A stretch of DNA of 64,000 nucleotides from an uncultured virus (IMG/VR IMGVR_UViG_3300032138_000963) (IMGVR_UViG_3300032138_000963), one strand, 5' to 3'; shown: positions 3,964-27,150, numbered from the stretch's first letter. The notes: a model not told the origin generated them from the letters alone. Made by a program: numbers and translations.

Positions 3964-4261
3964 GGGGGACCCTCGCGGCACCTGGGGCTCCGGCGTGCCT
4001 GCGAGCGCTGGCTTCATGCCTGAGCAGCAGCCGATCCTCGAAGGCGATGGCTACGTGTTCGCGGGGCCACGTCCAGCATCATCAGGGGTCTACGATGATG
4101 CTGATGTGTCTCAGGTGAGCGTGGGACGTCGATACGGCGTCAACACTCGTCCGCAGATTCAAATCCCGCAGATTCGTCCGGCTTCATCATTCAAGCCGGG
4201 AATGAAGCTTTCGCGCCAAGGCGCGCAGCGTACTCGAGGGGCACCGCGCAGGAATCGATAA
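3914..4261 (+). CDS. Small basic protein sharing its N-terminus with 3615..3917
   Basis: ATGA overlap; MTHKTGRLGRRYSRAG vs MTIKTGRAGRRYSRAG. Confidence 0.7.
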   Translation: MTHKTGRLGRRYSRAGMGDPRGTWGSGVPASAGFMPEQQPILEGDGYVFAGPRPASSGVYDDADVSQVSVGRRYGVNTRPQIQIPQIRPASSFKPGMKLSRQGAQRTRGAPRRNR

Positions 4262-4650
4262 TGGCTGAAAAGGACAAGGTTCAGCCCGCAGTACTTGCCG
4301 CCGGCCTCGTGGTCGTTGGCGGAATCGTGCTGTTTTCGATGCGGAAGAAGAGTCGCTGCGAAAAGCTTCCGGACATCTACGCGGAAGAGGGCCCGCTGCA
4401 CCTCACGCAGGAATCGCAAGACAGAGCCTACGAGGCAGCACAGTACAAGCTCCGTGAGTATATGCTCGCCGGCGAGACCTACAAGTTCGATGACGTGGTG
4501 CTGCATGTTGCGGACGAGCTTCGAGATTGCGCATGGGAGAAGCTCAAGACTGACGAGCAAAAAGCTGTGTGGTCTGGTATCAAGCACATCGTCAACGAAG
4601 TGAATCAGCGAGCAAAGGCTGATCAGGACGCATTCCTGAAATCCTTCTGA
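4261..4650 (+). CDS. Membrane-anchored protein (anchor + basic tract family)
   Basis: AVLAAGLVVVGGIVLFSM followed by RKKSR. Confidence 0.75.
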   Translation: MAEKDKVQPAVLAAGLVVVGGIVLFSMRKKSRCEKLPDIYAEEGPLHLTQESQDRAYEAAQYKLREYMLAGETYKFDDVVLHVADELRDCAWEKLKTDEQKAVWSGIKHIVNEVNQRAKADQDAFLKSF

Positions 4651-4662
4651 GGTTCAAAACCC

Positions 4663-5463
4663 ATGGCATCCAAACAGGGCACACTTCTCCTTCTCGCCGG
4701 CGCGGGCGCTTTGCTGCTCATGTCCGGCAAGAAGAAGAGAAGTCGCAAGGGCTCCGAGTCCAAGGATGATGCGGCGAAGACTCCTGATAGCCATCAGGAC
4801 GATCTCGACGACGAGGATGAGATCTTCGAGTCCGACGAGGATGCGGCTCCGCCGTCCCCTGCGGAGCCCGAAGACCATTCGGCCGCGGCTGTCCTTGCGA
4901 GGAATATGGACCCGGATGGTCGCGCGCAGCTTGGTATGCTGTACCAGATCAAGCAGGGGGACACGCCGCTCGAGATCTGCAGGGAGGCTCTGTTCGGTTC
5001 GCGTGACCCAGTCGTCGGCCCCGGACTGCGCCAGGCCGCCAAGGACCTGCTCGTTCGGATCGATTGTGGTCCATGGAACCAGGCTCTCTACGGTTTGCCG
5101 CTTGCAGATCTGAAGGAAGGCCACGCGAACATCGACAGCTACTTCACGCAGCGCGGCGTTTCGTTCAATCCGGTCTACCAGAACAACCAAAAGCGCATCC
5201 TCAACGGCTTGCGGCCAACGTCTGATCCTGGTGGAAGCCTCGCGCTCATTTGGATTCCGATGATCGACTTGGATCGTCTCGACATGGAGGGCATCGTGAC
5301 GACCGAGGGGATGAACTACCCAGACACCGAGAGCGGTTTGGGCAGCAGCATGATCGATCCTCCTGAGGAGATTCTCGATCTGGAATTCGACGAGGTCTCC
5401 GCAGACGAAGTTGGGTGCGACCTTCCTGAAGGTGATTTCCGCCGCTCGGTAGTGGCCAACTGA
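4663..5463 (+). CDS. Membrane-anchored protein with LysM-like motif
   Basis: LLLLAGAGALLLMSGKKKR leader; YQIKQGDTPLEIC resembles the start of a LysM domain. Confidence 0.7.
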   Translation: MASKQGTLLLLAGAGALLLMSGKKKRSRKGSESKDDAAKTPDSHQDDLDDEDEIFESDEDAAPPSPAEPEDHSAAAVLARNMDPDGRAQLGMLYQIKQGDTPLEICREALFGSRDPVVGPGLRQAAKDLLVRIDCGPWNQALYGLPLADLKEGHANIDSYFTQRGVSFNPVYQNNQKRILNGLRPTSDPGGSLALIWIPMIDLDRLDMEGIVTTEGMNYPDTESGLGSSMIDPPEEILDLEFDEVSADEVGCDLPEGDFRRSVVAN

Positions 5464-5475
5464 ATTGGAAAGGAT

Positions 5476-5613
5476 GTGGCGAAGCGGAAAAAGAGGAAAT
5501 ACTCGAAGACTGGCCCGGTCGTCACAGCCCTCCATGACCAGTCGTCCGCCATCCTCTTCCTCTCTCTGGTCACAGCCATCGCCTACAAACGACTGAATCT
5601 CCCGAAGCATTGA
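5476..5613 (+). CDS. Small membrane protein (45 aa)
   Basis: GTG start after GGAAAGGA; MAKRKKRKYSKTGPVVTALHDQSSAILFLSLVTAIAYKRLNLPKH; fills the gap. Confidence 0.5.
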   Translation: MAKRKKRKYSKTGPVVTALHDQSSAILFLSLVTAIAYKRLNLPKH

Positions 5614-5657
5614 GCGCCAACGAAAGGAATGGTATTTTCAGCTTGGGAGAAGAGAGA

Positions 5658-6125
5658 ATGGCCGAACATGACACATCAGAACCAATCCTTGTTCTAGTAC
5701 GTCGCGGAAGGAAAAATCGCGGTTTTTCCGTGTCGCCTGTCGAGGATGTCTCAAACGCAGCTTCGTGCGCGGATGAAAAAGAAATCGGAGAAGTCATTGT
5801 CGAGATGCTCGACGATCCGAGGCAGCCTCGAGTCAACATCAACGAGCTTCTCGCCGCCGCGGCGGGCGCTCCGACGACACGGACCCCCGATGAAGATGAA
5901 GATGAAGACGAAGACGACGACGACGACGACTACGAGGATGACGACGGAGGCGGAAGTCCCATCGATGAAGTTCTCGGTGGAGAGGGTGACCTGGCAGACA
6001 AGGCTATTATCTGGGGCCTCTCGTCGCTTCTCAACAAGGGTCGAAACATGAGCAGCTCCAAGGTGACCGATACCGGATCTCGCAAGAAGAAAAAGAAGAA
6101 GAAAAAGAAGAAGAAGACGACGTAA
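5658..6125 (+). CDS. Hypothetical protein with acidic tract and C-terminal poly-Lys
   Basis: D/E run followed by 11 consecutive Lys; stop overlaps the next ATG. Confidence 0.7.
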   Translation: MAEHDTSEPILVLVRRGRKNRGFSVSPVEDVSNAASCADEKEIGEVIVEMLDDPRQPRVNINELLAAAAGAPTTRTPDEDEDEDEDDDDDDYEDDDGGGSPIDEVLGGEGDLADKAIIWGLSSLLNKGRNMSSSKVTDTGSRKKKKKKKKKKKTT

Positions 6126-6832
6126 TGGAACCAGTCACACTCGCACTAATCGCCCTCGGTGGCTACGCGGTCCTTGGAGGAAAGCGTAGCTCCAGTCGCG
6201 GCGTGCGTGCGAGTAGTGGATGGGCGGTTAAGGGGAAAGCTGACCGGGTTGCGAACCTCAATGAAATTCGCAGCATGTCGTTTCACTACTCCAACGAGTT
6301 CGGTTCGATGCCGCTGCTTGCCGATTATCTGACGGTGATCGGTTTCAGGGAGTCAAATTTCAACCCGGCTGCCGCCAACCCCGAAATCAAGACCAATCCC
6401 ATGAACGCCGCGCGTGGCCTATTCGGCATGCGACCAGAGACGGTCTTCAAGAAATCCAATGGTCTCGAGCACATGCGAGCGCATCCAAATGCGCTGCTGA
6501 ATCCGCGTTGGTCGTTTGTCTGCGCCGTGCACCACACCTGGCAGGCATGTGACACGGTTGCGCGCAAGCTCGGCACTGGAACCAACTACGTTGCCGTGCG
6601 ACGATGGTGGGGCTTGCCTAGCAAGGTGACCGACTTCGACCTCGATGAGGAATTTTCACGGGCGAGCTTGGCGAAGCTCGAAAAGGCTGTCATCGACGTC
6701 AACCGTGGGTACGGCACGAATATCGATCCAGACTTCATTTGGGCAACCATTCAAGGGTGGCAAAACTACCCAGGCATGGATGTGATGCTGCAGGTTTACG
6801 GGCTCGCCGGACAATCCCAGGCGGCCGCATAG
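6125..6832 (+). CDS. Membrane-anchored lytic transglycosylase (SLT-like)
   Basis: N-terminal TM; IGFRESNFNPAAAN...AARGLFGM matches SLT motifs I/II with the catalytic Glu. Confidence 0.7.
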   Translation: MEPVTLALIALGGYAVLGGKRSSSRGVRASSGWAVKGKADRVANLNEIRSMSFHYSNEFGSMPLLADYLTVIGFRESNFNPAAANPEIKTNPMNAARGLFGMRPETVFKKSNGLEHMRAHPNALLNPRWSFVCAVHHTWQACDTVARKLGTGTNYVAVRRWWGLPSKVTDFDLDEEFSRASLAKLEKAVIDVNRGYGTNIDPDFIWATIQGWQNYPGMDVMLQVYGLAGQSQAAA

Positions 6833-6841
6833 GAGTTCACG

Positions 6842-7582
6842 ATGGCAGGTCCACTACCACTATTGCTCGCCGGCGGCGCCGCCTTGGTCCTTCTCGGAGG
6901 CAAGAAGAAGTCGAAGCCGAAGCGAAAGTCGCTTGCAGGTCAGCCTTGTGAAGCTGATGCTGCAGCTCCTGATGGGATGATCTGTAGGGGTGGAATTCTC
7001 CATCCGGAGATCATCGACGAATCGATGCTCGAAAAGTACGAGGAACCGACCGGTGAAGAGGCCGGGGACTTCGAGACAAAAGAGGAAGATGTGTCTTTGA
7101 CGGCTGAAGAAGAGCCCGGTCAGGTGACCCTGCAGTCGGATGAGGCTGTAGATCCTGCCACCATGTGCGACGAATTTCTGCAGGCGATCCACGTCGTCCC
7201 GACAGAGGCTGGCGAGATCGCCATCAACAAGGTGGCGGTCGAGCAGACAGCCATCCCAACGATGAAGGCGGTCATGCTCGGTATCCACCAAAACCTCGGC
7301 GGAAAAACGGTGGACGCCGAATCGGTTGGTCCTGTCATGGTCACATCCGCACTCCAAGAGCTGGTTCCGGTTTGCGACTGGAAGTTCGACGACGACGAGT
7401 TTACATTCAGCGATGGGATGACGATTCAAAGCGCGGCCGGCAAGGACGTGCTCTACGGCCTCATGCAGCTTTCGGTTCAACTCATCGACGACTTCAATGA
7501 GAGCCAGCAAGAGGATCTGCCGAAGGCGAGCTTTCAGCCTGCCGAAGTTCCAAAAGCAAAACCAGGATTCATAGGAGGCTAA
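6842..7582 (+). CDS. Membrane-anchored protein (LPL..AGGAALLLLGGKKK family)
   Basis: Starts MAGPLPLLLAGGAALVLLGGKKKSKPKRK. Confidence 0.8.
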   Translation: MAGPLPLLLAGGAALVLLGGKKKSKPKRKSLAGQPCEADAAAPDGMICRGGILHPEIIDESMLEKYEEPTGEEAGDFETKEEDVSLTAEEEPGQVTLQSDEAVDPATMCDEFLQAIHVVPTEAGEIAINKVAVEQTAIPTMKAVMLGIHQNLGGKTVDAESVGPVMVTSALQELVPVCDWKFDDDEFTFSDGMTIQSAAGKDVLYGLMQLSVQLIDDFNESQQEDLPKASFQPAEVPKAKPGFIGG

Positions 7583-7588
7583 AGCGCC

Positions 7589-7762
7589 ATGGCTAAATCG
7601 ACAAAAGATGATGAAGCGACCAACAAGCTCCTGTGGATTGCCGGCGGCGCCGCTGTCACGGCGTTCGCCATGTACTACGTCAACAAGTCCCTCAATGAGC
7701 GTGAGGAGCTGAAGCGACTGAAGTACGCTGAGAGCCGTCAGCTCAAGGAGGGCAGCGATTAG
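7589..7762 (+). CDS. Small membrane protein (57 aa)
   Basis: GGAGG upstream; LLWIAGGAAVTAFAMYYV TM; fills the gap. Confidence 0.65.
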   Translation: MAKSTKDDEATNKLLWIAGGAAVTAFAMYYVNKSLNEREELKRLKYAESRQLKEGSD

Positions 7763-8313
7763 TGGAGGCGCTGCCGCCAGCGGGGGACGACGCCCTCGGG
7801 CCCGAAGACAGGGCTCTCGTTGCGTTTGGTGAGGCCTGGGGCCGCAGCGAGGAGCTGCACTCGGTGGTCACTCGCCTACCTGGCGAGCTTGTGCTCAAGT
7901 CCGGCCTCTCGGCCAGGCGCAAGAGCCTGCTCGAGCGATGGGACGCCCTCGATTCACCTGAACTTGATGGCTCGCTTCCGGACGGAGCCATAGAGGCGCT
8001 CGGAAAGTGGAATCACGATGCGGAGGTTTTGATCTCCTACGTCGTGCGACTTGGCCGAGAGTCTCGGGAGCCATATCGCGCGCCTGATGGCAGGGTGTAT
8101 TCGGCGCCTCCGACGGATCCGGAAGATCTTCCGCAGGTCATCGATTCGATCGGTGAGGCGGAATTCATCGACGACGATTGGTGTTGGCCATGGCCGGATC
8201 GTCCCGCCATCGCCGCCACAAAACCAAAATGGGATAAGGGGAAGCTTGTCAAATTCGGGGTCGTTGCTGGCCTCGGAGTGATGGCGCTTGTGACTTATCT
8301 GGACGAGGATTGA
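7762..8313 (+). CDS. Protein with C-terminal transmembrane anchor
   Basis: C-terminal FGVVAGLGVMALVTYL. Confidence 0.7.
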   Translation: MEALPPAGDDALGPEDRALVAFGEAWGRSEELHSVVTRLPGELVLKSGLSARRKSLLERWDALDSPELDGSLPDGAIEALGKWNHDAEVLISYVVRLGRESREPYRAPDGRVYSAPPTDPEDLPQVIDSIGEAEFIDDDWCWPWPDRPAIAATKPKWDKGKLVKFGVVAGLGVMALVTYLDED

Positions 8314-8317: not shown

Positions 8318-8770
8318 ATGCCTGTGAATCTTCTACCCATCATCGTTGTCGGCGGCGCAGTTTTGCTTCTCGGAAAGAAGAAGAAGCGAACGACCAAAAA
8401 CGGCAACGGAAAAGCGCTTCCAGCAGCGAACGGTCGGGGTACTATTTTCGAGGGCGACACAGACAATCGCCCAAGCGGTATTCGCGCCAAGGTTGGGGAG
8501 CGGTTTTCTGTGACGTTCTTCTCCAATCCGTCCACGCCGGCAGATTGGAAGCTCAACGCCTCCCCGCCCGATAACTCCGTCAAACACGTCAAGACCGAGC
8601 AAGACCAAGTCGAAATCGAGGGTGTCGGCGGAGCTACCGGGAAGAACGTCTACATTTTCGAGGGCGCAAAACCTGGAAAGGGATCCCTCGTTTTCCACCT
8701 ACAAGCACCCTGGCTCGAAGGAAAAGAGCCGCCCGCAGAAATCGTCGAGATTCTCACCGAAATCTCGTAG
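8318..8770 (+). CDS. Membrane-anchored chagasin/ICP (Inhibitor I42)-like protein
   Basis: Family leader, then KVGERFSVTFFSNPSTPADW...GVGGATG...IFEGAKPGKGSLVFHLQAPW, resembling the NPTTGYxW / GxGG / RPW loops. Confidence 0.65.
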   Translation: MPVNLLPIIVVGGAVLLLGKKKKRTTKNGNGKALPAANGRGTIFEGDTDNRPSGIRAKVGERFSVTFFSNPSTPADWKLNASPPDNSVKHVKTEQDQVEIEGVGGATGKNVYIFEGAKPGKGSLVFHLQAPWLEGKEPPAEIVEILTEIS

Positions 8771-8794: not shown

Positions 8795-9403
8795 ATGGCA
8801 AAATCCGCACTACCCCTCATCGTTGGCGCCGGCGCGGCCGTCTTTCTTTTGATGCCAAAAAAGAAGAAGACGCCCGTAGTGAAAAAGAACGGCAACGGCA
8901 ACGGAAACGGCACGAAGACCGATCCGAACATCGTCATGTCCGGAACGAAATCCGAATGGGGATGGCGAGTGAGGAAAGAACCCGGCCAGCCAGGCTTCGC
9001 AGATCGATATTTCGGCGAGGTGAAAGACCCGGCCGCTGCGCTCACCTGGGAGACCGTGCACGACACCGGTCGCAGCAAGCCCGACGAGGCCAAGCTTCTC
9101 GCCTGGGAACGCATTGCCCAGGAGCTTGCCGACGAGGCCAGTCAGACGTTCAACTGGGAGCCAGCTCGCGCCCACAATGAGGGCAAGCTACGCGAGCAGT
9201 ACCCCGATGCGTCACTGAGCGTTCTCGACACCGGGTCGATGTCCAAAAATGGCGTGAAGTGCAATTGGGCCATCATGGACGTCCTTCCACCGATCGAGCC
9301 TGGCGCATACGCAGGGTTCGTTATCTGTCCGAAGACGAACGAGCAGATCAGTCGATTCGGCAACTCGATCGCCTCAATCAAGCAGGTACTCGAGATCACC
9401 TAG
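8795..9403 (+). CDS. Membrane-anchored protein (leader family)
   Basis: MAKSALPLIVGAGAAVFLLMPKKKK plus NGNG linker. Confidence 0.8.
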   Translation: MAKSALPLIVGAGAAVFLLMPKKKKTPVVKKNGNGNGNGTKTDPNIVMSGTKSEWGWRVRKEPGQPGFADRYFGEVKDPAAALTWETVHDTGRSKPDEAKLLAWERIAQELADEASQTFNWEPARAHNEGKLREQYPDASLSVLDTGSMSKNGVKCNWAIMDVLPPIEPGAYAGFVICPKTNEQISRFGNSIASIKQVLEIT

Positions 9404-9478: not shown

Positions 9479-10606
9479 GTGTCGAAGGAGAATCTCCAGA
9501 CCATTATCGTCTCCAAGGCGACGGCGAGCACTCGAAAGAGGGCCGAGAAGCTCGCGCGCCCTCACGCACGTCGCATATACACGTCGCGTGAGACGAGCGC
9601 GTCTTGGCAATTCCGCCAGCGTCCTCCCAGCGACTTCGTCAAGGGATCGTTCAAGTCGTTCCCACTCCCGCAAGAGCCTGGGATCGTCCTCGTCTACGGC
9701 AAGCTCAAGCGAAATCAGAACCCCGGCGACCAGAGGTGGCTGCAATTCAAGGGGGGCACCGACCGCGACGTCATTATGCGTGAGTGGGATTTTTGGATGG
9801 CCTTCGAATCTGGCCTGAAGAAAGTCAGGAGCACCACTGGATTACGAAAGGCCATCGCCCTCGCCGAGGATCGAGAGATTCAAACTCCGCTCATCCAAGG
9901 TCTGATCGTCAGGTCGATTGCCGATCGCGCTCGAGCGCTCCGAATCACACGGGTGCGCCAATCGACCGAGTCCGACGGGCGCATTTATCGACAGCTCAAG
10001 GAGGGGCGCATCGGTAACCCTAGCCGGAAGCTGAATAAATCGGCGAAACGAAAGTCGAAAAAGCCTAGCGCCAAGGCTCCGAAGTATATCAAGCTCCGGT
10101 CCCCCAAAACGATGCCAGATCCAGGGGCATGCGCATGGCTTGGCTCGATCGTCGAGTGGGGGTGGGTGATGGGCAACGGGGATTCGTCGAAGAAAGTCGA
10201 CGACAAAGGGAATGCGATCTGGGAGCCGAGATCCGAATGGATGTTCATGTGGTCTCCCAAGTACAAAGCCGTCGTCGCAGTTCGCCGACCTCGAAACATG
10301 TATCGATTGGCGGATGTTTCACGCTACGGAGGCGCTGCCAAGATGTTCGAGCGTTTCACTGCTCGCCCCGCCGAGAATACATTCGAAATTGACGTGCCCG
10401 ACGTGAGGCTGCACAAGCTCGGTGCCAAAGCGGCGCATATCGTGTACCGCTCTGATAAGTGGTCAGCACAGCGTCAAAAGTCCGACTACATCCACCCATT
10501 TGGCAAGGGGGTGCAGATTTACTGCGGTCCCAGCATTCAAAAACCCGAGGTGTTCATTTGCTTCGGAGGCAAGCTCACGCTTACAGAGCGCGGCCTTGTT
10601 TGGTAA
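9479..10606 (+). CDS. Basic multi-segment protein with xNP motifs
   Basis: Long ORF; RNQNPG and RIGNPS separate three segments. Confidence 0.75.
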   Translation: MSKENLQTIIVSKATASTRKRAEKLARPHARRIYTSRETSASWQFRQRPPSDFVKGSFKSFPLPQEPGIVLVYGKLKRNQNPGDQRWLQFKGGTDRDVIMREWDFWMAFESGLKKVRSTTGLRKAIALAEDREIQTPLIQGLIVRSIADRARALRITRVRQSTESDGRIYRQLKEGRIGNPSRKLNKSAKRKSKKPSAKAPKYIKLRSPKTMPDPGACAWLGSIVEWGWVMGNGDSSKKVDDKGNAIWEPRSEWMFMWSPKYKAVVAVRRPRNMYRLADVSRYGGAAKMFERFTARPAENTFEIDVPDVRLHKLGAKAAHIVYRSDKWSAQRQKSDYIHPFGKGVQIYCGPSIQKPEVFICFGGKLTLTERGLVW

Positions 10607-10625: not shown

Positions 10626-11294
10626 ATGGCGAATCCGAAGCGCGGTCACTGCAGTAACAGAGACATCGTCAATGCCCAAAAGCGGCTCTATTCCCCTCGA
10701 TACGATTTCGAGGGAGACGACGGTCTTGCCTGGTACGAACTAATCGACGCCGACGCCATGTGCTTTTGGGGCATGTGCGACCACGACAGCTACAACGCGT
10801 GGGTCAAGGCGACGGACAGGTACATCAATGACACATTGGTGCCGCACTACAAGAAGGTTCTCTCGCGCGCTGAGGCTGTCCACGGCGGCGCCGCCTTTCC
10901 GGTCGAGTTGACCGATCGATTCAACAAGGTCGAAGATGCGGTCAACTCCTGGCAGGCCGCCGGGTACCGGGCGGACAAGGGTTGGAGCGACGACTTTCGT
11001 CACCCGTTTGCCACCTGGTGGTGGGGTGAGATTCGGAAGATTATCGACTACTTCGATGAGGCTGCCTGCCAGTTCGATCAACTGGACGACGTTGCAGCCC
11101 ATGCACTCAAGCAGCCATCACTTGCGAAGGGTGCGCCCATTCGACAGCTCGAGCATGTCGAAGGCGGGTACCTTGGCGGTCACGGTGGCCCGTCGGGCAA
11201 GGGGAAGGGCGAGCGTTCCATGCTTGGAATGGCCGTCGGAATCGTTGCAATCGGAGCGGCCGGGTATTTCGGCTACAAGGTTCTTACGGAGTAA
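10626..11294 (+). CDS. Protein with C-terminal transmembrane anchor
   Basis: GGAGAG SD; C-terminal MAVGIVAIGAAGYFGY. Confidence 0.75.
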   Translation: MANPKRGHCSNRDIVNAQKRLYSPRYDFEGDDGLAWYELIDADAMCFWGMCDHDSYNAWVKATDRYINDTLVPHYKKVLSRAEAVHGGAAFPVELTDRFNKVEDAVNSWQAAGYRADKGWSDDFRHPFATWWWGEIRKIIDYFDEAACQFDQLDDVAAHALKQPSLAKGAPIRQLEHVEGGYLGGHGGPSGKGKGERSMLGMAVGIVAIGAAGYFGYKVLTE

Positions 11295-11297: not shown

Positions 11298-12050
11298 ATG
11301 GCGAAAAAGACTTCAGCTCTCCCAATCCTCGCCGGCGGCGCTGCCGTATTGCTTCTCGCCGGCAAGAAGAAAAAGAAGAAGAGCAGCGGCAATGGCGGAA
11401 ATGTCCGGTGGGGAATCCGGGTGAGCCCGGACTGCGCCAAGGTTGATGTCGTCGACGTGAACCTCTTCCACAAGTTCATGTTCGGAGCCTTCAACGAATT
11501 GGTGAGTGCGGATCCGTCTCTCACGCTGATTCAGATGTCCGACGCCCTGTTCGGTGATATTGCTCCGAACTGCTCCGGGTTCCCTGAGGATCCCGAGAGC
11601 GCCGAGGTGGCCGAGCTGTACGCCATCATCGCGCGGAATGTCGGGCAGTTCATGGTCGCGGATCCGCGTGTGGATCTGACCATGGGGGCACTGATCGACG
11701 AGGCGACTCAGATCTCCTTCACCGACTGGTACCGAGCTTGGCGAAACTACCCGTCTTCGGATGTCCCGGAGGCGCCGGATAATCAGGTCTCATTCTCGAG
11801 CGACCTATCGACGTTCAAGGTTGGGTCGAACTGGTACGTGGATACGATTCTCCCGTTCGTGGGTGAGGCCGGCGAGGCTGGTCGACTCGAGACCGCCTTC
11901 GAAGATTTCGTGGGGAATCGCGGCGTGTTGGTTGGCAAGTTCGTGATGCCGATCGCAGAGCTTCCACAAGACAACGAGACTGTCGTCCGATTCCTCAATG
12001 AGCTGCAAGCCTCAATCCAGCAAGCTGAAAAGGAGATCGTTGGCGCGTGA
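11298..12050 (+). CDS. Membrane-anchored protein (leader family)
   Basis: Starts MAKKTSALPILAGGAAVLLLAGKKKKKK. Confidence 0.8.
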   Translation: MAKKTSALPILAGGAAVLLLAGKKKKKKSSGNGGNVRWGIRVSPDCAKVDVVDVNLFHKFMFGAFNELVSADPSLTLIQMSDALFGDIAPNCSGFPEDPESAEVAELYAIIARNVGQFMVADPRVDLTMGALIDEATQISFTDWYRAWRNYPSSDVPEAPDNQVSFSSDLSTFKVGSNWYVDTILPFVGEAGEAGRLETAFEDFVGNRGVLVGKFVMPIAELPQDNETVVRFLNELQASIQQAEKEIVGA

Positions 12051-12478
12051 GCCTACGTGAGGAATACGGCCACTTCCTCCTTCTCGGTGCCGGGCTTTTG
12101 ATGCTGGGCATGGCGAGTAAGCGCAAGCCGAGGAAGATGGAGGACCGGTCGGGGGAGAAGTGTGATCCAGATGAGGTCACACCCATGGGATACCAGTGCG
12201 GTCAGGTGCGCGGCGGATGGGAGCTGAGTCCCGAGCCCGAGCATTTCGCTGGCTTCGGCCCCTACATCAACCGGGAGAGCGTCGACGTGGCCCTCGCTCG
12301 TGTCGGCTTCCCAGATGGGAACCTCGCCGGATTTCAGGGGTACATGTCCTTGGTCTACGGGCGAGACCTCCGAAAGGATGGCGAGGTCGATGGCTCGAGC
12401 ATGCATGCCCTGCGCGACGCCGAGCAGATGCTTGGCCGGGATGAGTGGGTCTTTCCGAGAGGGGCGCAAACAGGATGA
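12047..12478 (+). CDS. Membrane-anchored protein with degenerate PG-binding-like C-terminus
   Basis: FLLLGAGLLMLGMASKRK; ALARVGF...LAGFQ...LRKDGEVDGSSMHAL. Confidence 0.65.
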   Translation: MSLREEYGHFLLLGAGLLMLGMASKRKPRKMEDRSGEKCDPDEVTPMGYQCGQVRGGWELSPEPEHFAGFGPYINRESVDVALARVGFPDGNLAGFQGYMSLVYGRDLRKDGEVDGSSMHALRDAEQMLGRDEWVFPRGAQTG

Positions 12479-12999
12479 GCGACGAGACTCCAGCTCAAAA
12501 TCCTCCGCCACCCAAGAGTAGTCCGCTCCTGGAGCCCGAGGAAAAGGGGATCGGCGATTACCTCATTCCTGGACTCCTCGGGGTCGCAGGTGCGGCGCTT
12601 TTGTACAAGTCGATGTCCAAGAAGAAGTCGTCGAATGGTGGCTCGTCGAGCAAGGTGGAAGCGTCCGACAACGAGGTCAAGTTCTCGAAGGGGTATTCGA
12701 ATTACGCCGTCGGCAAGGACTGGGAGGAGATGACGCTCGAGCCCTACCTCGCAGAGCAGGCTGAGGAGGGCAACCTCATCACGGCGGATTACGCCGACGA
12801 CTCGATGGTTACCGTCGAGATGATTCGGCCGTCCATGAAGGACAGTCGAGCGAAGACGCTTGCGGCATTTCGGTCTACCCACAAGGTCGGCACTACCGAC
12901 GGTGAGGTCCCCATTTCCAAACTTCCGAGCAAGTCCGGTGTTCAGAAGTTCAACGCGTGGCTCGACACTCAAGTCGAAAAGTTCCAGGAGGAATACTGA
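12475..12999 (+). CDS. Membrane-anchored protein (leader family)
   Basis: LIPGLLGVAGAALLYKSMSKKK; shares a domain with 11298 and 14510. Confidence 0.75.
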   Translation: MSDETPAQNPPPPKSSPLLEPEEKGIGDYLIPGLLGVAGAALLYKSMSKKKSSNGGSSSKVEASDNEVKFSKGYSNYAVGKDWEEMTLEPYLAEQAEEGNLITADYADDSMVTVEMIRPSMKDSRAKTLAAFRSTHKVGTTDGEVPISKLPSKSGVQKFNAWLDTQVEKFQEEY

Positions 13000-15415: not shown

Positions 15416-15796
15416 ATGGCCAAATCCGCACTACCACTCATCCTCGCAGGCGGCGCTGCCCTTCTTCTCCTTGGCGGCAAGAAGAAGAAGGGGAAGCCTA
15501 AGCTTCGTCGAGGATGCACGAGCATCAAGACTATTGGCGCACTCCTCCAGATGGACAGCGGTGCGGCCGCGAATTATCCGATGGTGCTCATCGTATATCC
15601 CGTCGGCGAGGAGTCGAAGGCCGAAGAGAGGTGCAGGGAATACGGGGATGGAGGGTGGTCAGCGGTGATGGTGAGCGTTCAAACCGTAAAGGCCGCGGCC
15701 GGCGACGAGATCGTACCTCCGGGCGAGTATTTGGCGGTGGACGGGCACACCGACCCCGCCTTTGTGGACTGGGCAACCGTAACGAGTTCAAGCTAG
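15416..15796 (+). CDS. Membrane-anchored protein (leader family)
   Basis: Starts MAKSALPLILAGGAALLLLGGKKKK. Confidence 0.8.
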   Translation: MAKSALPLILAGGAALLLLGGKKKKGKPKLRRGCTSIKTIGALLQMDSGAAANYPMVLIVYPVGEESKAEERCREYGDGGWSAVMVSVQTVKAAAGDEIVPPGEYLAVDGHTDPAFVDWATVTSSS

Positions 15797-17976: not shown

Positions 17977-18522
17977 ATGGCAAGCAAGACCAAAAAAGCA
18001 GCTGCACTTGGCGCCCTCGCGCTCCTTTTCCTCATGGGCGCCAAGAAGCCCAGCAAGAAAAAGAAGAACGGGAACGGCGCGAACGGTGACGGCATGGATG
18101 GGGGTGGGCATGACCCATACGACCCCGAGGATGAGGGCTTCGACCCGAGTGGGCCACCCGGCCCAGCCCCGGACGACGGCTCGGGTGGTGGCGACGAGAT
18201 TTTCCCGTCGCCAACTCCGACGCAGGGCGGTCACTACGGAATCAAGAAGGGCGACACCTTTGTAGGAATCGCCCGAGCCCTATTTCCCGAGGCCGGCGGA
18301 GCCGAACGCATCGCCATCGCTCGGGTGATCAACGAGCACCCGAGGAACGCTGGGCTACTCATCGTTCCGAAGAAGGAATGGAACAGGAAGTACATCGGGG
18401 ATCTGATGATTTCGTTCTATCCAGACTGGATGGCGAATCCTCGTTTCGAATCCGAGAGGTTCGAGTCCGGCCATTCTCTGGCCACAATCTACATCCCAAC
18501 TTTCGAAGAAGGAATGGTGTAA
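17977..18522 (+). CDS. Membrane-anchored LysM-like protein
   Basis: AAALGALALLFLMGAKKPSKKKK; HYGIKKGDTFVGIARAL. Confidence 0.75.
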   Translation: MASKTKKAAALGALALLFLMGAKKPSKKKKNGNGANGDGMDGGGHDPYDPEDEGFDPSGPPGPAPDDGSGGGDEIFPSPTPTQGGHYGIKKGDTFVGIARALFPEAGGAERIAIARVINEHPRNAGLLIVPKKEWNRKYIGDLMISFYPDWMANPRFESERFESGHSLATIYIPTFEEGMV

Positions 18523-18526: not shown

Positions 18527-19498
18527 ATGTCAGGCGAACTTGTAATCGGCGGCGGAATTGCCCTCCTCCTCCTTCTCGGAAAGAAGAAGAAGAAGAGCAC
18601 CAAGAAAACGAACGGCAACGGAAACGGTACGAACGGCAACGGAAACGGCACCCACGGCGGGTCCGAGCTGGACGATCCAACGGAGAAGAAGACTCCGGGC
18701 GGCGGAGGCTCCGGAGGCGGCTCACAGGGCGGAAGCGGCAAGGGTGGCGGCGTGCCCTCAAACCTCGCTCCCGACGCTGTCTGGGTGTCTCCGGACTGCA
18801 AGAAGGTCGTCTTCGGCGACGAGACCGGTGAGGCCTTTTGGACGAAGAAGGGGCTCCCCACCGCCCAAAAGTTCATTGCGGCCAACTATCACGATCCGTA
18901 CGAGGTCGCCAAAATGATGGTGCTCTCCATGGCTCCCTGCGTCGTCGAATTTCCCGTCATGGAGGACGGTTTCGATCCGATGGAAGAGGAGTTCAGGCGC
19001 GAGATGTTCAACAGGGATTTCAAGGACGTGTACTACCTTGTTCAATTCCTGCACGACAAAATCGCGGAGCTGATGGATCAAGAGGCGCGCCTCATCGAGT
19101 TCAATGATCGATGCGATGTCGTATTCGTCGGCGAGGACTGGGAGAGGTTCATCGCCAAGCGTATGGCCCGTTTCTACATCGACTACATGTATCCTGCGGC
19201 TACGAATTTCATGGATCACGAGGAGAGGTTCAAGGCGTGGCCTTTGGCGGACCCAAAGGAGGAGAACATGGTCTGGTGGGACAACGTCGCCACGGCGATC
19301 GTCAACCGAATGCATCCAGAATGTGGAATCGCAATCGTCGAGGCCGCCAAAAAGGAGCCATTCTCCGGTGCCTCATTTTTCGCCACCCGACCAGGTCTCA
19401 AGGCTATGTACTCATCGCTGGTGGATTTGGTGAATCAGACTCACGACGAGCAGCCTGGTGGTCTGGATTTTGAGAAGTTCGAGAACCTTCAGAGCTAG
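18527..19498 (+). CDS. Membrane-anchored protein, paralog of 16845..17945
   Basis: LVIGGGIALLLLLGKKKKK leader, NGNG linker, shared body. Confidence 0.8.
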   Translation: MSGELVIGGGIALLLLLGKKKKKSTKKTNGNGNGTNGNGNGTHGGSELDDPTEKKTPGGGGSGGGSQGGSGKGGGVPSNLAPDAVWVSPDCKKVVFGDETGEAFWTKKGLPTAQKFIAANYHDPYEVAKMMVLSMAPCVVEFPVMEDGFDPMEEEFRREMFNRDFKDVYYLVQFLHDKIAELMDQEARLIEFNDRCDVVFVGEDWERFIAKRMARFYIDYMYPAATNFMDHEERFKAWPLADPKEENMVWWDNVATAIVNRMHPECGIAIVEAAKKEPFSGASFFATRPGLKAMYSSLVDLVNQTHDEQPGGLDFEKFENLQS

Positions 19499-19539: not shown

Positions 19540-20487
19540 ATGGGATCCCCACTGGTACCACTTGGATTGGCTGGAGCGGCCGTCGTGCTGCTTTCGTCAG
19601 GCAAAAAACGGAAAAAGAGCGTCTCAGGCGGGCCTTCTTCATACAATCTTCCGACCAATACTCCGATTCCTCAGGTATACGGAGGCGCCGCAGCGCCCTC
19701 TCCTGAGGCGACTGAGTCACAAACGGAGTGGGTGGATCGCCAAAAGGCGCTCCAGGCCATTTCGCAGATCGAATTCTTCACCAAGGATGGCGGCTCGGTA
19801 TCGCTGTGCTCGAAATGTCATCCAGGCGACGCCGATGGGAAGCCGGGCAAGAATACTCGAGCGGCGGTCAAGGCGTTCCAGGCGATTTCGGGGCTCAGCG
19901 TCGACGGCGAATGGGACGCCAACGAGGATCGTGCAATGCACAGAATCCTCACCGCCGTTGCGAATGAGTTGCCCATCAGCTGCGATCCCCTTCTTGGATA
20001 CCCATCCCCGTTCGCGTGCTTTGTTCACGGGGACGGATTCGCTCTGATGCTTGTCGAAGGAACAGAGGGAACAAAGCCTGCCCCAAAAGCGAAGCCGTCT
20101 CCATCGCCGGCCCCGGCCCCGTCGCCGTCGCCGTCACCGTCGCCGTCCGAGGAGCAAAAGGAGTTCGGGCCCGATGAGCTTTTGGTCGCCGACGCAGAGT
20201 GCAACTATATTCTGCATCAGGACGACAAATGGTTCACTGAGCAGCGGCGCCGCATGATCGAGTACGCGCTCGATGGAATGACCGACTCTCAGGCTGCGAC
20301 GGAAATCCACGAGTCCATGCTCGCGGATTACATTCCCCTGTGCCTTTCGCTTGGTCGAAATGGTGTAGGCTCTGGCGTTCGCCAGTTCTGGGATGTCAAT
20401 TTGGGCCATGTGGCATCGGGCCTCAAAACCTACGACCTACTTCCGGATCTACTCGAGGAAGACGCGATCAAGTTCGGTCTTCTCTGA
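19540..20487 (+). CDS. Membrane-anchored peptidoglycan-binding protein
   Basis: Leader; DGKPGKNTRAAVKAFQAISGLSVDGEWD. Confidence 0.8.
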   Translation: MGSPLVPLGLAGAAVVLLSSGKKRKKSVSGGPSSYNLPTNTPIPQVYGGAAAPSPEATESQTEWVDRQKALQAISQIEFFTKDGGSVSLCSKCHPGDADGKPGKNTRAAVKAFQAISGLSVDGEWDANEDRAMHRILTAVANELPISCDPLLGYPSPFACFVHGDGFALMLVEGTEGTKPAPKAKPSPSPAPAPSPSPSPSPSEEQKEFGPDELLVADAECNYILHQDDKWFTEQRRRMIEYALDGMTDSQAATEIHESMLADYIPLCLSLGRNGVGSGVRQFWDVNLGHVASGLKTYDLLPDLLEEDAIKFGLL

Positions 20488-20524: not shown

Positions 20525-21175
20525 ATGGCTGGAAAAGGACTACCACTCATCCTCGCAGGAGGGGCCGCGCTCCTTTTGATGGGGGGCAAGAAGAAGAAGA
20601 GCACCAAGAAGGCGACGACGAACGGGAACGGGACCGGGAACGGTGCCACTCCGTATGAGGAGATTCCCGCCGGCGAGGAGCCGGAGCCGTACACTCCCCC
20701 GGCGCCCGCGCCCAAGCCGAAAAGCGATCCCACTCGCCCCGCTGGAAATCCTCCTCGCGACAACAACTACGACGGGGCCTACTGGGGATCCACGACCAAA
20801 GAGCGCCTCGAGGGGATTCGCCGGCACTTTGCGCAGCTTGGCTACCCGGTGGAAGTTGTCCCATATCCCATGAACATCCTCGGCCCCAAGGGGACCATGG
20901 AGATGCAGAACTACGATGGGACATCTGGAAAGCTCGGCGGAGACGACGATCAGCCAGAGCCAGTCGTGAGGGAGTTGCAACACGACTACAACCGGATTTC
21001 GAGGCTCAACAAGGCCGAGAAGTTCACTCAGAGCAGCATGGGCGGACTCGACACCGACGGCGCCGTCGGCCCGTACACGCTCAATGGTCTGCGTCACGCC
21101 AAGGAGGTCGAGAAAGCTTCCGGCAAGAGCTGGGATGACCTTCTCCTCATGGCAAAAAACAAGGGGATCGCCTAG
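20525..21175 (+). CDS. Membrane-anchored protein with PG-binding-like motif
   Basis: MAGKGLPLILAGGAALLLMGGKKKK; VRELQHDYN...LDTDGAVGPYTLNGL. Confidence 0.75.
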   Translation: MAGKGLPLILAGGAALLLMGGKKKKSTKKATTNGNGTGNGATPYEEIPAGEEPEPYTPPAPAPKPKSDPTRPAGNPPRDNNYDGAYWGSTTKERLEGIRRHFAQLGYPVEVVPYPMNILGPKGTMEMQNYDGTSGKLGGDDDQPEPVVRELQHDYNRISRLNKAEKFTQSSMGGLDTDGAVGPYTLNGLRHAKEVEKASGKSWDDLLLMAKNKGIA

Positions 21176-21194: not shown

Positions 21195-21938
21195 ATGCCC
21201 GCCAGGAAGCACCATCGGGTTCTCGCTACGAACCCGCGGTCCAAAACCGGAGAGGCGGAGGTCGTCATACGAGGCAAGGCCAAGTACTACCTCATCATTC
21301 CAGTCGGTGAAGACCTCTTCGAAATCCACTACGGCGGCAAATACCTCGGTGAAAGCACATCCCTCTCAGGAGCCGAATCCTTCATTCAACGCGGCGGGGC
21401 TACCGCTCCCGTTCTGATCAAAAACCCAAACGGAGGCTACGAAATGTTCAAGTACAAAAGCCCTGGCAAGAAGACGGCGAAAGCCAACCCGAAGAAGAAG
21501 CGCAAGTCGACCAAGAAGAAGGCGACTCGCAAGAAGAAGTCCACGAAGCGCAAGAGCACCAAGAAGAAGTCGACCAAGAAAAAGTCGACCAAGAAAAAGG
21601 CTGCGAAGCGCCGTCCCGCGAAGAAGAAGGCGACCAAGCGCAAGTCGACGAAGAAGAAGTCGACGCGCAAGAAGAAGTCCACCAAGAAGAAGGCGACGAA
21701 GCGCAAGTCGACGAAGAAGAAGTCGACCAAGCGCAAGAGCACCAAGAAGAAGGCTGCGAAGCGCCGTCCCGCGAAGAAGAAGGCGACGAAGCGCAAGAGC
21801 ACCAAGAAGAAGTCGGCGACCAAGCGCAGGTCTACCAAGAAGAAGGTGACCAAGAAGGCGCCCAAGGAGAAGGTCTCCGTCGATCGAGCGGTGCGAGGTC
21901 ACATCACCAAGACGACCGGTCAGCGGCCGAACTGGTAA
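21195..21938 (+). CDS. Histone H1-like Lys-rich DNA-binding protein with xNP motifs
   Basis: ~130 aa of KKKSTKKK / KRKSTKKK repeats after ANP. Confidence 0.8.
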   Translation: MPARKHHRVLATNPRSKTGEAEVVIRGKAKYYLIIPVGEDLFEIHYGGKYLGESTSLSGAESFIQRGGATAPVLIKNPNGGYEMFKYKSPGKKTAKANPKKKRKSTKKKATRKKKSTKRKSTKKKSTKKKSTKKKAAKRRPAKKKATKRKSTKKKSTRKKKSTKKKATKRKSTKKKSTKRKSTKKKAAKRRPAKKKATKRKSTKKKSATKRRSTKKKVTKKAPKEKVSVDRAVRGHITKTTGQRPNW

Positions 21939-22019: not shown

Positions 22020-22397
22020 ATGACGCAACAATACCAACAGAGGAACATCAACAACCCCGAGGGCGGTGGAACCATCGCCAACACCGTGGCCGATCCCGAT
22101 GCGGAGCTGACGGCTTCGGATGTCGGCAAGGTCGTTCGGTTCGATACGACCGAGGCGGCCGGGACGGTCACCTTGCCTCGGTCTGCCGAGGCGGGGGATG
22201 GCGCGGAGATCACGGTGATCTTTCCCGTCGGCGCAACCGGCAACCCGGGTACGCTCGCAGCGATCTCGTCGGGCACGCCTGACGTGCTCGTGGCGCCCGC
22301 CACTGCACCGGCAAATCCAGCGGTGAGCGACAACGCGAGTTTCATCGTTCGCGCTGACGGTGGATCGAACTGGTACATCGTAGCCGGCCTCGCGTAG
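22020..22397 (+). CDS. Beta-rich putative virion surface protein (MTQQY family)
   Basis: MTQQYQQRNIN; VTLP...G..ITV...ADGGSNWYIV resembles a module common in phage fibre/adaptor proteins. Confidence 0.7.
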   Translation: MTQQYQQRNINNPEGGGTIANTVADPDAELTASDVGKVVRFDTTEAAGTVTLPRSAEAGDGAEITVIFPVGATGNPGTLAAISSGTPDVLVAPATAPANPAVSDNASFIVRADGGSNWYIVAGLA

Positions 22398-22490: not shown

Positions 22491-23057
22491 ATGACTCAGC
22501 AATACCAAGAAGAAAGCATCAACGGGCAACCGTCCGCCCTCTCGTTGAGGGCCAACCCCTCCGCCCTACCAGCTGCCGGCGTCGTGGACACCGAGGCCAT
22601 TTTTTGGCCTACCCTGGCAGGCGATGCCGTCATCGTCGGCGATGGCTTGGCCGTAGCAGGCGACGCCAACGTGGGCACCATCATCGAGGTCGGTCAGCCT
22701 GGCCTGTATCAGGTCTCCCTGACTCTCGCCGACGGGACTCCTGGCCCGAACCTGGTCAACATCGTGCGCGGTGCCACCGTGGCCATCACGGTCGGCAACG
22801 GATATCCGGCGGCCGACTTTGTGACCGGCACTCCGTTGGGTGTCGAGATGCTCGGGTTCACGCCATCCGCCGCACCGCCGCCCTTCAACGTGACCCTCAT
22901 CTCGACTTTCCGCGTCACCGGTACCGACATCGCCAATGTGGGCACCAACGGCACCGTGAATCCACGTCGGCAGATTCGATTCTCCGCCGACGCGGCGGTC
23001 ATTCCTGCCCTATTCGCGCCTGGAACCCTGATCGACATTCAGCGCACCAGCCTCTAG
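22491..23057 (+). CDS. Beta-rich putative virion protein (MTQQY family)
   Basis: AAGGAG SD; starts MTQQYQEESIN. Confidence 0.7.
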   Translation: MTQQYQEESINGQPSALSLRANPSALPAAGVVDTEAIFWPTLAGDAVIVGDGLAVAGDANVGTIIEVGQPGLYQVSLTLADGTPGPNLVNIVRGATVAITVGNGYPAADFVTGTPLGVEMLGFTPSAAPPPFNVTLISTFRVTGTDIANVGTNGTVNPRRQIRFSADAAVIPALFAPGTLIDIQRTSL

Positions 23058-25897: not shown

Positions 25898-25913
25898 AAA
25901 GAAGGACAGGAAA

Positions 25914-26291
25914 ATGACGCAACAATACGATCAGCCAGGAATCAACACTCAGCAGGCGAACATGATCGCCGAGAACACTCCCGATGGCGCAGTGCGCGAT
26001 GTCGTGCTTGGCGCGATTACGGAAGACGGCGATAGCCAGACCTTCCTCATCGATGGCGGCGGGTCCGATCCCGACGACGTGTCCACGAACAACTACGTGG
26101 TCGAAATCCGCGTAACCTTCACCCGAGACGCAGGAGTGGTCGCCGCAGGCGCATCGAATATCGCTCTCGACATACTTGGTGCCGCGCCGGTCTTCGCGTT
26201 TGCCGTCGATGGAGACGACTGCATTCTTCGAATCACCCCGCCGGCGAGTCGCTACACGCACCGACTGCTTTCGACGCCGATCAACTACTAG
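25914..26291 (+). CDS. Beta-rich putative virion protein (MTQQY family)
   Basis: Starts MTQQYDQPGIN; SD upstream. Confidence 0.7.
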   Translation: MTQQYDQPGINTQQANMIAENTPDGAVRDVVLGAITEDGDSQTFLIDGGGSDPDDVSTNNYVVEIRVTFTRDAGVVAAGASNIALDILGAAPVFAFAVDGDDCILRITPPASRYTHRLLSTPINY

Positions 26292-26294
26292 GCG

Positions 26295-26657
26295 ATGGCG
26301 AAGAAGAAGACCAAGGGCCGCAAATCGTCGAGCCTCAAGCAGGTTCCGGCGAAGGATTTCAGCATCGATTGGGATGCTGGGCGGAACACTTGCGTCTTCA
26401 AACACAAGAGTGGCAAGGGCGGAGAGCTTGGCTGCGGCGTAATGGACGTGGTGTCCGTGTACGCCAACGGAGGTCGGATATTCGCACTATCCGTCAACTA
26501 TCCTGCTCGGTACGCATGCCTCGAAGCGTTCACGAAGGAGGGGCTCGACGAACTCGTTTTCGCAGAGCCCAAAGACGTCAACGAAATGTTTGGACAGGAG
26601 TTCGCTTCGCATTCGCCAAAGGCGATTGCTGAACGCCTGTCCAAGGAACTCGGCTAA
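26295..26657 (+). CDS. Hypothetical protein
   Basis: Tightly packed 120-aa ORF. Confidence 0.7.
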   Translation: MAKKKTKGRKSSSLKQVPAKDFSIDWDAGRNTCVFKHKSGKGGELGCGVMDVVSVYANGGRIFALSVNYPARYACLEAFTKEGLDELVFAEPKDVNEMFGQEFASHSPKAIAERLSKELG

Positions 26658-26682
26658 GGTCGAAAACCAGGAGAAAGAAGAT

Positions 26683-27150
26683 ATGGCTGGAAAATCCGCA
26701 CTACCCCTCATCATCGGTGTCGGCGCTGCCGCGCTGCTGTTGGGAGGAAAGAAGAAAAAAACCACGAACGGGAACGGGAAGAAGCCCGCCGACCCCGATC
26801 CCGGAAAGCCCTTCCTCGACGTGGCAGATTGGGAAGCCTCCTCAGGAGGAGGGGCCGCGTCAAAGCGGGAATTCGACGCCGAGTGCAAGGGGATCGCCAA
26901 CAAGGTCGACCTTACTCCGGGCGGAGCCTACGACAGCTGGATCACGGGTCGATACTTCCAGTTGCTGGCTGAGGGGAATAGCCTCGAGCAAATCACCATG
27001 CAGCTCATGGTCGATCAGGGCGAGCATTGTCCTTGGGGAGATCCCTCCAAGTACACGCCGCTGATGAGGAAGGCGTTCGACGACACTCTCGACGGTGTCA
27101 CGCAGTTTCACGCGGCGACCGGCGGCAAGATCCCCGATTCCATGGGCTGA
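26683..27150 (+). CDS. Membrane-anchored protein (leader family)
   Basis: Starts MAGKSALPLIIGVGAAALLLGGKKKKTTNGNG. Confidence 0.8.
   Translation: MAGKSALPLIIGVGAAALLLGGKKKKTTNGNGKKPADPDPGKPFLDVADWEASSGGGAASKREFDAECKGIANKVDLTPGGAYDSWITGRYFQLLAEGNSLEQITMQLMVDQGEHCPWGDPSKYTPLMRKAFDDTLDGVTQFHAATGGKIPDSMG

Follow-up and report, generated by a model that had tools for sequence, protein, structure and literature searches.

In a stretch of 64,000 nucleotides (henceforth the window) from the 168,626-bp contig of the uncultured virus IMGVR_UViG_3300032138_000963, a series of plus-strand genes was found to encode proteins that start with the same short leader, a hydrophobic helix directly followed by a run of lysines, and that carry mostly unrelated cargo behind it. 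From its charge pattern, the leader is predicted to be a reverse (type III, N-out/C-in) signal-anchor, and the interpretation tentatively preferred here is that the tagged proteins constitute a particle-borne toolkit, which would be released from the producer together with the particle and target the envelope of the host infected next. Fifteen genes between 4663 and 27150 share the start consensus M-A-x-x-L-P-L-L-x-x-G-G-A-A-L-L-L-L-G-G-K-K-K-K, and six further genes encode a looser N-terminal helix with a basic flank; these 15 strict and six loose members make up 21 window proteins (genes are named by their first position). The leader consists of 2–6 uncharged residues, an uncharged Leu/Ala/Gly helix of 17–22 residues, about half of which are Gly or Ala, and 3–7 Lys directly behind it; the core of the consensus reads LPLxxxGGAALLLLxG, and the Gly in the middle of the helix is near-invariant. 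The Lys run is followed by a flexible linker rich in Asn, Gly, Ser, and Pro, and then by the variable cargo. A preliminary description of the window had listed 14 strict open reading frames (ORFs), and the translations of all 14 indeed begin with a short uncharged N-tail, the 17–22-residue Leu/Ala/Gly stretch, and the Lys run.

The distribution of the leader was determined with a six-frame regular expression (a stretch of 12 or more hydrophobic residues, LIVFMAGW making up at least 80%, with three or more K/R behind it). It gave 15 matches, 14 of them on the plus strand between 4285 and 26695 and the other a spurious one on the minus strand; apart from the latter, no leader was found in the region from 28 to 64 kb. 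The expression recovered 12 of the 14 strict ORFs (12999 and 19540 were missed) and two of the seven ORFs that had been described as looser versions (4261 and 12047). The proposed similarity at the DNA level was corroborated by a 21-nt string present at 8801, 15422, and 26692, of which none was expected (100 shuffles). A hidden Markov model (HMM) of the leader, comprising 36 positions and built from 43 leaders (the 15 window members match by construction), retrieved 225 protein clusters at E ≤ 1e-3 among 1.84 billion representatives. The cluster statistics on charge, cysteines, and Pfam domains given below cover the 150 clusters listed of these 225, and in all 150 the match begins within residues 1–7. 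In view of the clustering of the regular-expression matches, the 21-nt string, and the strictly N-terminal HMM matches, chance or low complexity was rejected as the source of the leader. The seven looser versions fared unevenly: 17977 fits the HMM and is counted here with the strict members, but 4261, 6125, 7589, and 12047 reached independent E values (iE) of only 0.6–1.2 (0.89 for 4261), and 12475 and 16845 were not matched at all. The loose ORFs nonetheless encode an uncharged N-terminal helix of which the C-side flank is the more positive.

The leader is conserved in a group of phages. For the protein encoded by 18527, 23 homologs were found, all of them unnamed and metagenomic, with relatives on contigs of 221,287 and 145,462 bp; its orthologs retain the leader, in which G10, A12, L14, L16, K20, and K21 are near-invariant. 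Comparison of 16 related loci, one in a GTDB metagenome-assembled genome (MAG) labelled uncultured Desulfobacterales and 15 on metagenome contigs, revealed up to 14 leader genes per 21 kb, invariably on the query strand and in the same gene order as in the window. Orthologous groups each have their own flavour of the leader, such as MSGELVIGGG in the 18527 group and MAGKSA(L/M)PLL in the 20525 and 26683 groups, which indicates that leaders are maintained gene by gene, that is, by selection on the leader and not by gene conversion or homogenisation. The leader genes are syntenic core genes and not variable accessory ones. Within the MAG, 22 of 22 leader matches at E ≤ 0.01 lie on three phage-like contigs (C1, C5, and C75), whereas 300 other genomes of the same order contained no leader match at E ≤ 1e-5. 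As, in addition, no leader contains a cysteine, expansion of a cellular lipoprotein family, which had been considered at the outset, does not account for the observations. The MAG holds at least three contigs, or 111 kb, of the related phage, and C1 and C5 are new sequence; the phage contigs were probably misbinned and provide, at best, a weak indication of the host. Beside the genes discussed below, C1 and C5 encode a Tad6-type Thoeris inhibitor, an Fe/Mn superoxide dismutase, a class-V aminotransferase (cysteine desulfurase-like), DnaJ, and a CPYC glutaredoxin.

In the window, net charges range from −1 to +2 in the N-flank of the helix and from +2 to +9 in the C-flank (+4 to +9 in strict members). 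Among the 150 listed clusters, the net charge before the Lys run is 0 in 90 and +1 in 51, and the Lys run begins at residue 18–23 in 146. According to the positive-inside rule, such a charge pattern is that of a reverse signal-anchor, with the N-terminus outside and the C-terminus inside; the topology anticipated in the preliminary description is therefore also the one predicted here. The 12475 protein, which has an N-tail of 24 residues, shows the same polarity as the strict leaders. Features of a cleavable Sec signal peptide are lacking, as there is no positive n-region and a Lys run takes the place of the neutral or acidic start of the mature protein. Neither a lipobox cysteine (no Cys before residue 31 in 21 of 21 window proteins) nor a Tat motif (no RR before the helix in the leaders examined) was found. 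Without Cys, RR, or a neutral early mature region, the leader lacks the defining features of Sec, lipoprotein, and Tat signals, which excludes these. Two tail-anchored proteins in the same block can serve as an internal control: for 7762–8313 (+; C-terminal helix, basic N-flank, and acidic C-tail, with ortholog matches in three loci) and 10626–11294 (+; C-terminal helix and four Cys), the bulk of the protein and the positive flank are predicted on the cytoplasmic side, indicating that the usual charge rule holds here. Furthermore, another protein of a relative (C5, 31294–32703) carries a conventional, K-containing lipoprotein-type signal, so the host, too, appears to obey the usual charge rules.

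The cargo is mostly unrelated by BLASTP and, in the window and the 16 related loci together, falls into 27 cargo clusters, in line with the notion that the tag is portable. The few exceptions include 16845 and 18527 (50% identical), 17977 and 4663 (30% identical), and 12475, which shares separate 55-residue stretches with 11298 and with 14510 (the latter stretch being C-terminal in 12475). Where cargo could be recognised, it is wall- or envelope-directed in kind, as had been proposed. In the window, a chagasin-type peptidase inhibitor domain (I42) is encoded by 8318–8770 (+; Pfam 2.4e-11, regular expression, and HMM) and PG_binding_1 by both 13943–14506 (+; behind a Pro/Ala-rich linker; Pfam 6.8e-9 and HMM) and 19540–20487 (+; six Cys; Pfam 5.5e-8 and HMM). 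Two other assignments did not hold: the SLT match of 6125 is sub-threshold (E 0.05, 13.6 bits versus a cut-off of 21.3), and no LysM match was obtained for 17977 or 4663 even at E ≤ 5. A search of PDB sequences with phmmer gave no match for 6125 or three upstream proteins of a relative. In a relative, the leader is found on an alpha/beta-hydrolase (phospholipase/carboxylesterase family) and on PG_binding_1, and a looser one on Peptidase_M23. Linkers of 30–80 residues precede PG_binding_1. Of the 150 listed clusters, 30 contain PG_binding_1, two DUF333, and one a glutaredoxin-like domain of the CxxC type (CNAC motif). Judging from these domain assignments, each recognised cargo kind belongs outside the cytoplasm.

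The cysteines of the tagged proteins point in the same direction. Even counts predominate among the leader proteins of the window (13 even, one odd; binomial P = 9e-4), whereas neither the minus-strand ORFs (21 even, 18 odd) nor the non-leader proteins of the plus strand (eight even, eight odd) in the window show such a preference. The bias extends to 76 non-redundant leader proteins of the window and the loci (47 even, five odd, 24 without Cys), to the 27 cargo clusters (16 even, four odd, seven without Cys), and to the 150 listed clusters (77 even, 15 odd, 58 without Cys). The count is constant inside orthologous groups (four throughout in one, two throughout in another), and the alignment of the 18527 family contains four invariant Cys. 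Such an even-count bias is a mark of disulfide-bonded exported proteins. One protein on a 5.7-kb contig of a relative (P0083) combines the leader with a DUF333-like module and a glutaredoxin-like domain with the CNAC motif; by this domain content, it would be a thiol oxidoreductase attached through the tag that the cysteine-paired cargo also carries. Thus, the leader predicts a location on the cytoplasmic side, but the cargo and its cysteine pattern speak for an extracytoplasmic one, a contradiction that points to an undescribed delivery route.

As to the kind of virus, the assumption that it is a large membrane-containing one was not supported. Neither a double jelly-roll capsid protein nor an FtsK/A32-type ATPase was detected with Pfam and PHROGs in the 64-kb window of the 168,626-bp contig, or in ORFs of at least 100 amino acids (aa) in the first 43.5 kb of C1 (54.8 kb) and in C5 (43.5 kb); instead, neighbouring proteins resemble those of tailed phages. 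The leader block is interleaved with proteins that share the N-terminal motif MTxQYQQ (see below) and resemble fibres and baseplate proteins. In PHROGs, one C5 protein had strong matches to families of head decoration (4.3e-22), of tail fibres (2.1e-18), and of virion structural proteins (9.3e-17), and the C5 homolog of a 510-aa MTxQYQQ protein of the window gave a weak baseplate match (6.6e-5); these matches are located beside leader genes. The Atlas neighbours of the 510-aa protein itself are tailspike and fibre clusters of tailed phages, with scores of 0.79–0.88 that are to be taken as leads only. On C1, a replication module (PrimPol-D5, helicase, RecT, and AAA), a separate, leaderless endolysin (PG_binding_1 and Amidase_2), the Tad6-like protein, and an orphan plus-strand gene run lie upstream of the leader block; the region downstream on C5 contains more leader genes and five or more MTxQYQQxxIN proteins. 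On balance, the group tentatively leans towards tailed phages. The only terminase in the MAG, a Terminase_6N on contig C76 with portal- and capsid-sized neighbours, was rejected because its homologs are on contigs of ∼40–47 kb and none is on the 145–221-kb contigs of the group, which assigns it to an unrelated family of phages of ∼45 kb. A Phage_capsid (HK97) match in the MAG is located on a 4.8-kb contig and is not linkable to this phage, and the MAG contained no match to Phage_sheath_1 or Terminase_6C. No match for the 510-aa and 18527 proteins was found among the cultured phages of INPHARED (tblastn); the integrase-ATPase and RNB proteins of the window (see below) were discarded as links to cultured phages because only generic RadA or RNase R stretches matched. 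Scanning IMG/VR with two single proteins and two alignments yielded no relative.

If the tagged proteins are indeed a particle-borne toolkit, the reverse signal-anchor would serve as a portable address tag. Its short N-tail could cross the bilayer without Sec-type translocation of the cargo, and the Lys run would be the stop-transfer signal, so that Lys run, linker, and cargo would remain on the side where the protein was delivered. Because the cargo is of the wall type and the conserved core genes lie in a late, structural-looking block, the proteins would most likely leave with the particle. Two routes are conceivable. A lipid layer of the virion may carry the tagged proteins, or these may be ejection proteins, the uncharged N-terminal helix of which inserts into the membrane of the recipient from the periplasmic side; in the latter case, the “cis” side would be the wall side, and the Lys run and the cargo would come to lie beside the wall. 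Several points weigh against a particle-borne toolkit. About 20 proteins with a fully hydrophobic helix would have to be extracted from the membrane of the producer for packaging, 118 of the 150 listed cargo clusters lack a Pfam domain, and both families that were folded (18527 and 9479) gave no clear fold match. Furthermore, no capsid, portal, or terminase attributable to this phage group was found in the contigs scanned, and we know of no tailed phage with lipid in its particle. Finally, ordinary periplasmic proteins with an anchor in the inner membrane would have exactly this cargo profile, which, taken by itself, makes periplasmic proteins of the producer cell the simplest explanation.

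Were the leader, despite its charges, an uncleaved N-in/C-out anchor or a cleaved signal, the exported cargo could remodel or tether the wall of the infected cell, for example, in superinfection exclusion, lysis timing, or protection from proteases. All recognised cargo kinds are typical of the periplasm, the conserved even-numbered cysteines suit DsbA-type oxidation, and the long linkers before PG_binding_1 suit a bridge from membrane to wall. This explanation is possible, if unlikely: the net charge changes from 0 or +1 in the N-flank to between +4 and +9 directly after the helix, and basic residues right behind a signal block Sec export, as work on the positive-inside rule has established. 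The conventional lipoprotein-type signal in the relative, with a host that apparently abides by the rule, and the status of the genes as syntenic core also argue against it. The same charge pattern would be retained if the proteins were a lysis or egress arsenal on the cytoplasmic face of the inner membrane, a “reverse” version of signal-anchor-release (SAR) endolysins that reaches the wall after a holin breaks or depolarises the membrane. Storage of wall enzymes in the cytoplasm until holin action is the normal logic of lysis, the high Gly/Ala content of the helix resembles that of SAR domains, and PG_binding_1, M23, the esterase, and possibly SLT are cargo kinds of endolysins and LysB-type enzymes. 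However, some 20 conserved genes far exceed any lysis cassette and the relative has its separate amidase endolysin without a leader, which together weaken this idea; no lytic logic is apparent for chagasin, the large orphan domains, or the multi-helix 14510 family, and a tether on the inner face would impede access to the wall. Hence, we regard it as unlikely.

A giant virus with a PRD1-type internal membrane, into which the tag would sort proteins, is a distinctly improbable alternative. The predicted topology would fit, as C-in domains would face outwards to the capsid and later the wall, and so would the tail-anchored proteins of the block. Yet scanning the ORFs of the whole window, of C5, and of the initial 43.5 kb of C1 gave no double jelly-roll or A32-like match; the model of the 9479 protein likewise gave no match to such a fold, which in itself is inconclusive. 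The fibre- and baseplate-like neighbours indicate a tailed phage, and the genomes of internal-membrane phages known to us are ∼9–30 kb, compared with 145–221 kb here. The leader could also act without any lipid, in the manner of the capsid-targeting sequence (CTS) of T4, by docking cargo to a scaffold or core before being cut off by a prohead protease. Both have the same architecture, in that cargo of various kinds in a large phage begins with one short, conserved tag (for the CTS, see PMC3012670); many block proteins are very basic and, hence, suited to lying in DNA, and two more N-terminal tags occur in the same block. On the other hand, a nascent chain that begins with a helix of 18 residues, hydrophobic throughout, would be expected to go to the membrane, and no conserved cleavage motif follows the leader, so that this alternative appears highly improbable.

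The remaining strict members, all on the plus strand, differ widely in length and composition. In the main run, 4663–5463 (266 aa, a distant paralog of 17977) and 6842–7582 (246 aa, four Cys) encode orphan cargo and were identified by translation, regular expression, and HMM, as was 8795–9403 (202 aa, NGNGNG linker, two Cys), which also contains the 21-nt string. Translation and HMM support 12999–13943 (314 aa, four Cys), 14510–15412 (300 aa, additional Gly/Ala-rich hydrophobic segments), and, with the 21-nt string, 15416–15796 (126 aa, two Cys). The HMM identified 15810–16841 (343 aa, Pro-rich linker, two conserved Cys), which has orthologs in 11 loci; HMM and BLASTP combined support 11298–12050 (250 aa, orthologs in five loci, one 55-aa stretch in common with 12475), 17977–18522 (181 aa, weaker leader of 23 bits), and 20525–21175 (216 aa). 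The C-terminal domain of the latter is shared with ORF 70–924, which itself resembles 928–1545. Apart from the main run, 26683–27150 (155 aa, two Cys) was recognised by regular expression, 21-nt string, and HMM. For 18527–19498 (323 aa, four invariant Cys), support comes from homolog alignment and an AF2 model (pLDDT 82.5), the latter showing a confident helical cargo domain at residues ∼75–320 and low confidence for leader and linker; with Foldseek, the family model matched nothing in PDB at E ≤ 1e-3, and VIA gave a Z of 4.5 at best (SopE, SltB3, and SltB1).

The six loose members lie on the same strand. At 4261–4650, the helix follows a tail of eight residues and is itself followed by RKKSR (regular expression and HMM), and 12047–12478, with a GTG start and two Cys, encodes a helix and then KRKPRK (regular expression and flank analysis). 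Flank analysis also supports 6125–6832, in which KRSSSR follows the N-terminal helix (with Pfam for the SLT-like cargo), 7589–7762, which encodes only 57 aa with one central helix, and, together with BLASTP, 12475–12999, in which the helix is preceded by the long N-tail (net −1 over the 15 flanking residues) and followed by KSMSKKK. Finally, 16845–17945 has a degenerate leader and was identified by BLASTP as the paralog of 18527.

The block contains further shared ends. A second N-terminal tag, MT(Q/E)QYQQxxIN, is present on four otherwise different plus-strand window proteins of 125–510 aa (22020–22397, 22491–23057, 25914–26291, and 28295–29827), on three C5 proteins, and on proteins in C75 and two other related loci (L002 and L004); as the Atlas neighbours of the 510-aa member are tailspike- and fibre-like, this tag is probably the common docking end of receptor-binding proteins. 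A third, very basic N-terminal tag, MTx(K/R)xGRxGR(R/K)(Y/F)xR, is found on several genes further upstream, at 1556–1894, 3615–3917, and 3914–4261 (+) and in a looser form at 70–924. C1 contains four copies, one fused to a ferritin/Dps-like domain; in the window, the tagged ORF 1556 and the Dps-like ORF 1903–3618 are separate and in different frames. The neighbours 1903–3618 and 3615–3917 (+) both end with the C-terminal motif (K/R)xVRSFLR, and the product of 3615–3917 has 100 aa, eight Cys, and an RKRKRRRKRR tail. Two very basic, DNA-binder-like proteins may be internal proteins associated with DNA: the product of 21195–21938 (+), with a conserved head of 90 residues and a long, histone H1-like tail of KKKSTKKK-type K/S/T repeats, and that of 5610–6125 (+), with a poly-Asp/Glu stretch and twelve Lys at the end.

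A bolder version of the particle-borne toolkit would have phages of 150–220 kb, possibly tailed, that contain host-derived lipid and load distinct sites by means of the three N-terminal tags, with the hydrophobic-plus-Lys tag sorting about 20 proteins (wall-binding, hydrolytic, and inhibitory) onto the lipid and the disulfides being formed in the cytoplasm, or after release, via the tagged CxxC oxidoreductase. Poxvirus membrane proteins, with their cytoplasmic disulfide pathway, would be a parallel. This proposal is speculative, and it is improbable that it holds as a whole.

The plus-strand half of the window (1–30.7 kb) consists almost entirely of orphan genes by Pfam and PHROGs; 16 non-leader proteins of the block had no PHROGs match at E ≤ 1. 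The genes are co-directional and dense, many abutting or overlapping by a few bases (for example, 12047/12475/12999/13943/14510/15416/15810/16845). Shine–Dalgarno-like GGAG motifs precede the ATG of most leader genes, and most genes have no in-frame start further upstream. The best conserved gene of the block is a non-leader gene, 9479–10606 (+), with 60–75% identity in five related loci and 143 homologs, which sit on contigs of up to 221, 216, and 193 kb. The AF2 model of this family (pLDDT 87.4) had no PDB match at E ≤ 1e-3; an unnamed protein in BFVD was matched in part (9.7e-4), the highest Z in VIA, 7.0, covered a helical hairpin only, and the ESM Atlas gave no match for the protein. The minus-strand half (30.8–64 kb) is phage-like in gene content, encoding HNH endonucleases, a dNMP kinase (phrog_139, 2.7e-52), dCTP deaminase, DUF1353, GP88, and NUDIX proteins. 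It also contains a 645-aa ORF (40232–42169, −), the product of which joins a tyrosine integrase (Phage_integrase, 4.2e-23) to a KaiC/RadA/DnaB-like ATPase (phrog_26214, 1.1e-32), and a phage-encoded RNB-family exoribonuclease (59921–61690, −; 3.9e-60), at the C-terminus of which lies a dsRNA-binding motif (1.3e-14). A search of the 64 kb for tRNAs was negative.

The elements of the system (a reverse signal-anchor, a portable tag, and particle-borne wall enzymes) are known, but a description of their combination was not found in searches of the full-text literature, nor was a phage counterpart of a single topogenic tag on more than 200 cargo families; the homologs retrieved are all unnamed proteins. 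Should the tagged proteins travel in the particle, this would imply that a very large phage contains lipid or else that ejection proteins of a new, membrane-inserting class exist, and virion lipid, if shown, would make it a new kind of system; if the proteins are exported after all, the leader would be a natural exception to the positive-inside rule. Either way, the 25-residue tag could become a cargo-targeting module for phage engineering.

Among known systems, LPXTG, PEP-CTERM, and GlyGly-CTERM are C-terminal signals on Sec-exported proteins and are cut by a sortase-type enzyme. With them, the leader has in common the succession of short motif, hydrophobic helix, and basic cluster as well as the predicted orientation in the membrane, but it is N-terminal, and no sortase-type enzyme was seen. 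SAR endolysins have a Gly/Ala-rich N-terminal helix, often with an N/G-rich stretch behind it, and a positive N-flank (N-in/C-out). The leader likewise places a Gly/Ala-rich, weakly hydrophobic N-terminal helix on wall-active phage cargo; however, its charges are reversed, and most of its cargo has no muralytic domain. PRD1 and other internal-membrane phages have entry proteins on the membrane of the virion, such as the transglycosylase P7 of PRD1. In PRD1 assembly, membrane proteins first go into the cytoplasmic membrane of the host, a patch of which is then pinched off into the cytoplasm (PMC6356626). Like these entry proteins, the tagged proteins would be phage membrane proteins that are first in the cytoplasmic membrane of the host and have wall-active functions on the particle; differences are the tail-fibre-like neighbours, a genome some ten times the size, and the failure to find a capsid or ATPase of the PRD1 type in the contigs scanned.

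In T4, a conserved short N-terminal tag, the CTS, directs diverse internal proteins to one place (PMC3012670). The leader resembles it in being one conserved N-terminal tag on diverse cargo of one large phage. Unlike the leader, the CTS is not known to form a transmembrane-like helix, and the prohead protease cuts it off; in the leader, no conserved motif or cleavage site was seen after the Lys run. Type III (N-exo/C-cyto) reverse signal-anchors are represented by the N-terminal anchor of microsomal cytochrome P450 and, in bacteria, by its analogue in the Pf3 coat protein. The leader corresponds to this type in its uncharged N-terminal helix, the minimal N-tail, the basic cluster behind, the Pro/Gly-rich hinge, and a domain that would be kept on the side of synthesis. 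What distinguishes it from the P450 and Pf3 anchors is that it forms a conserved family on more than 200 cargo clusters of one phage group, and that this cargo is wall-directed instead of cytosolic.

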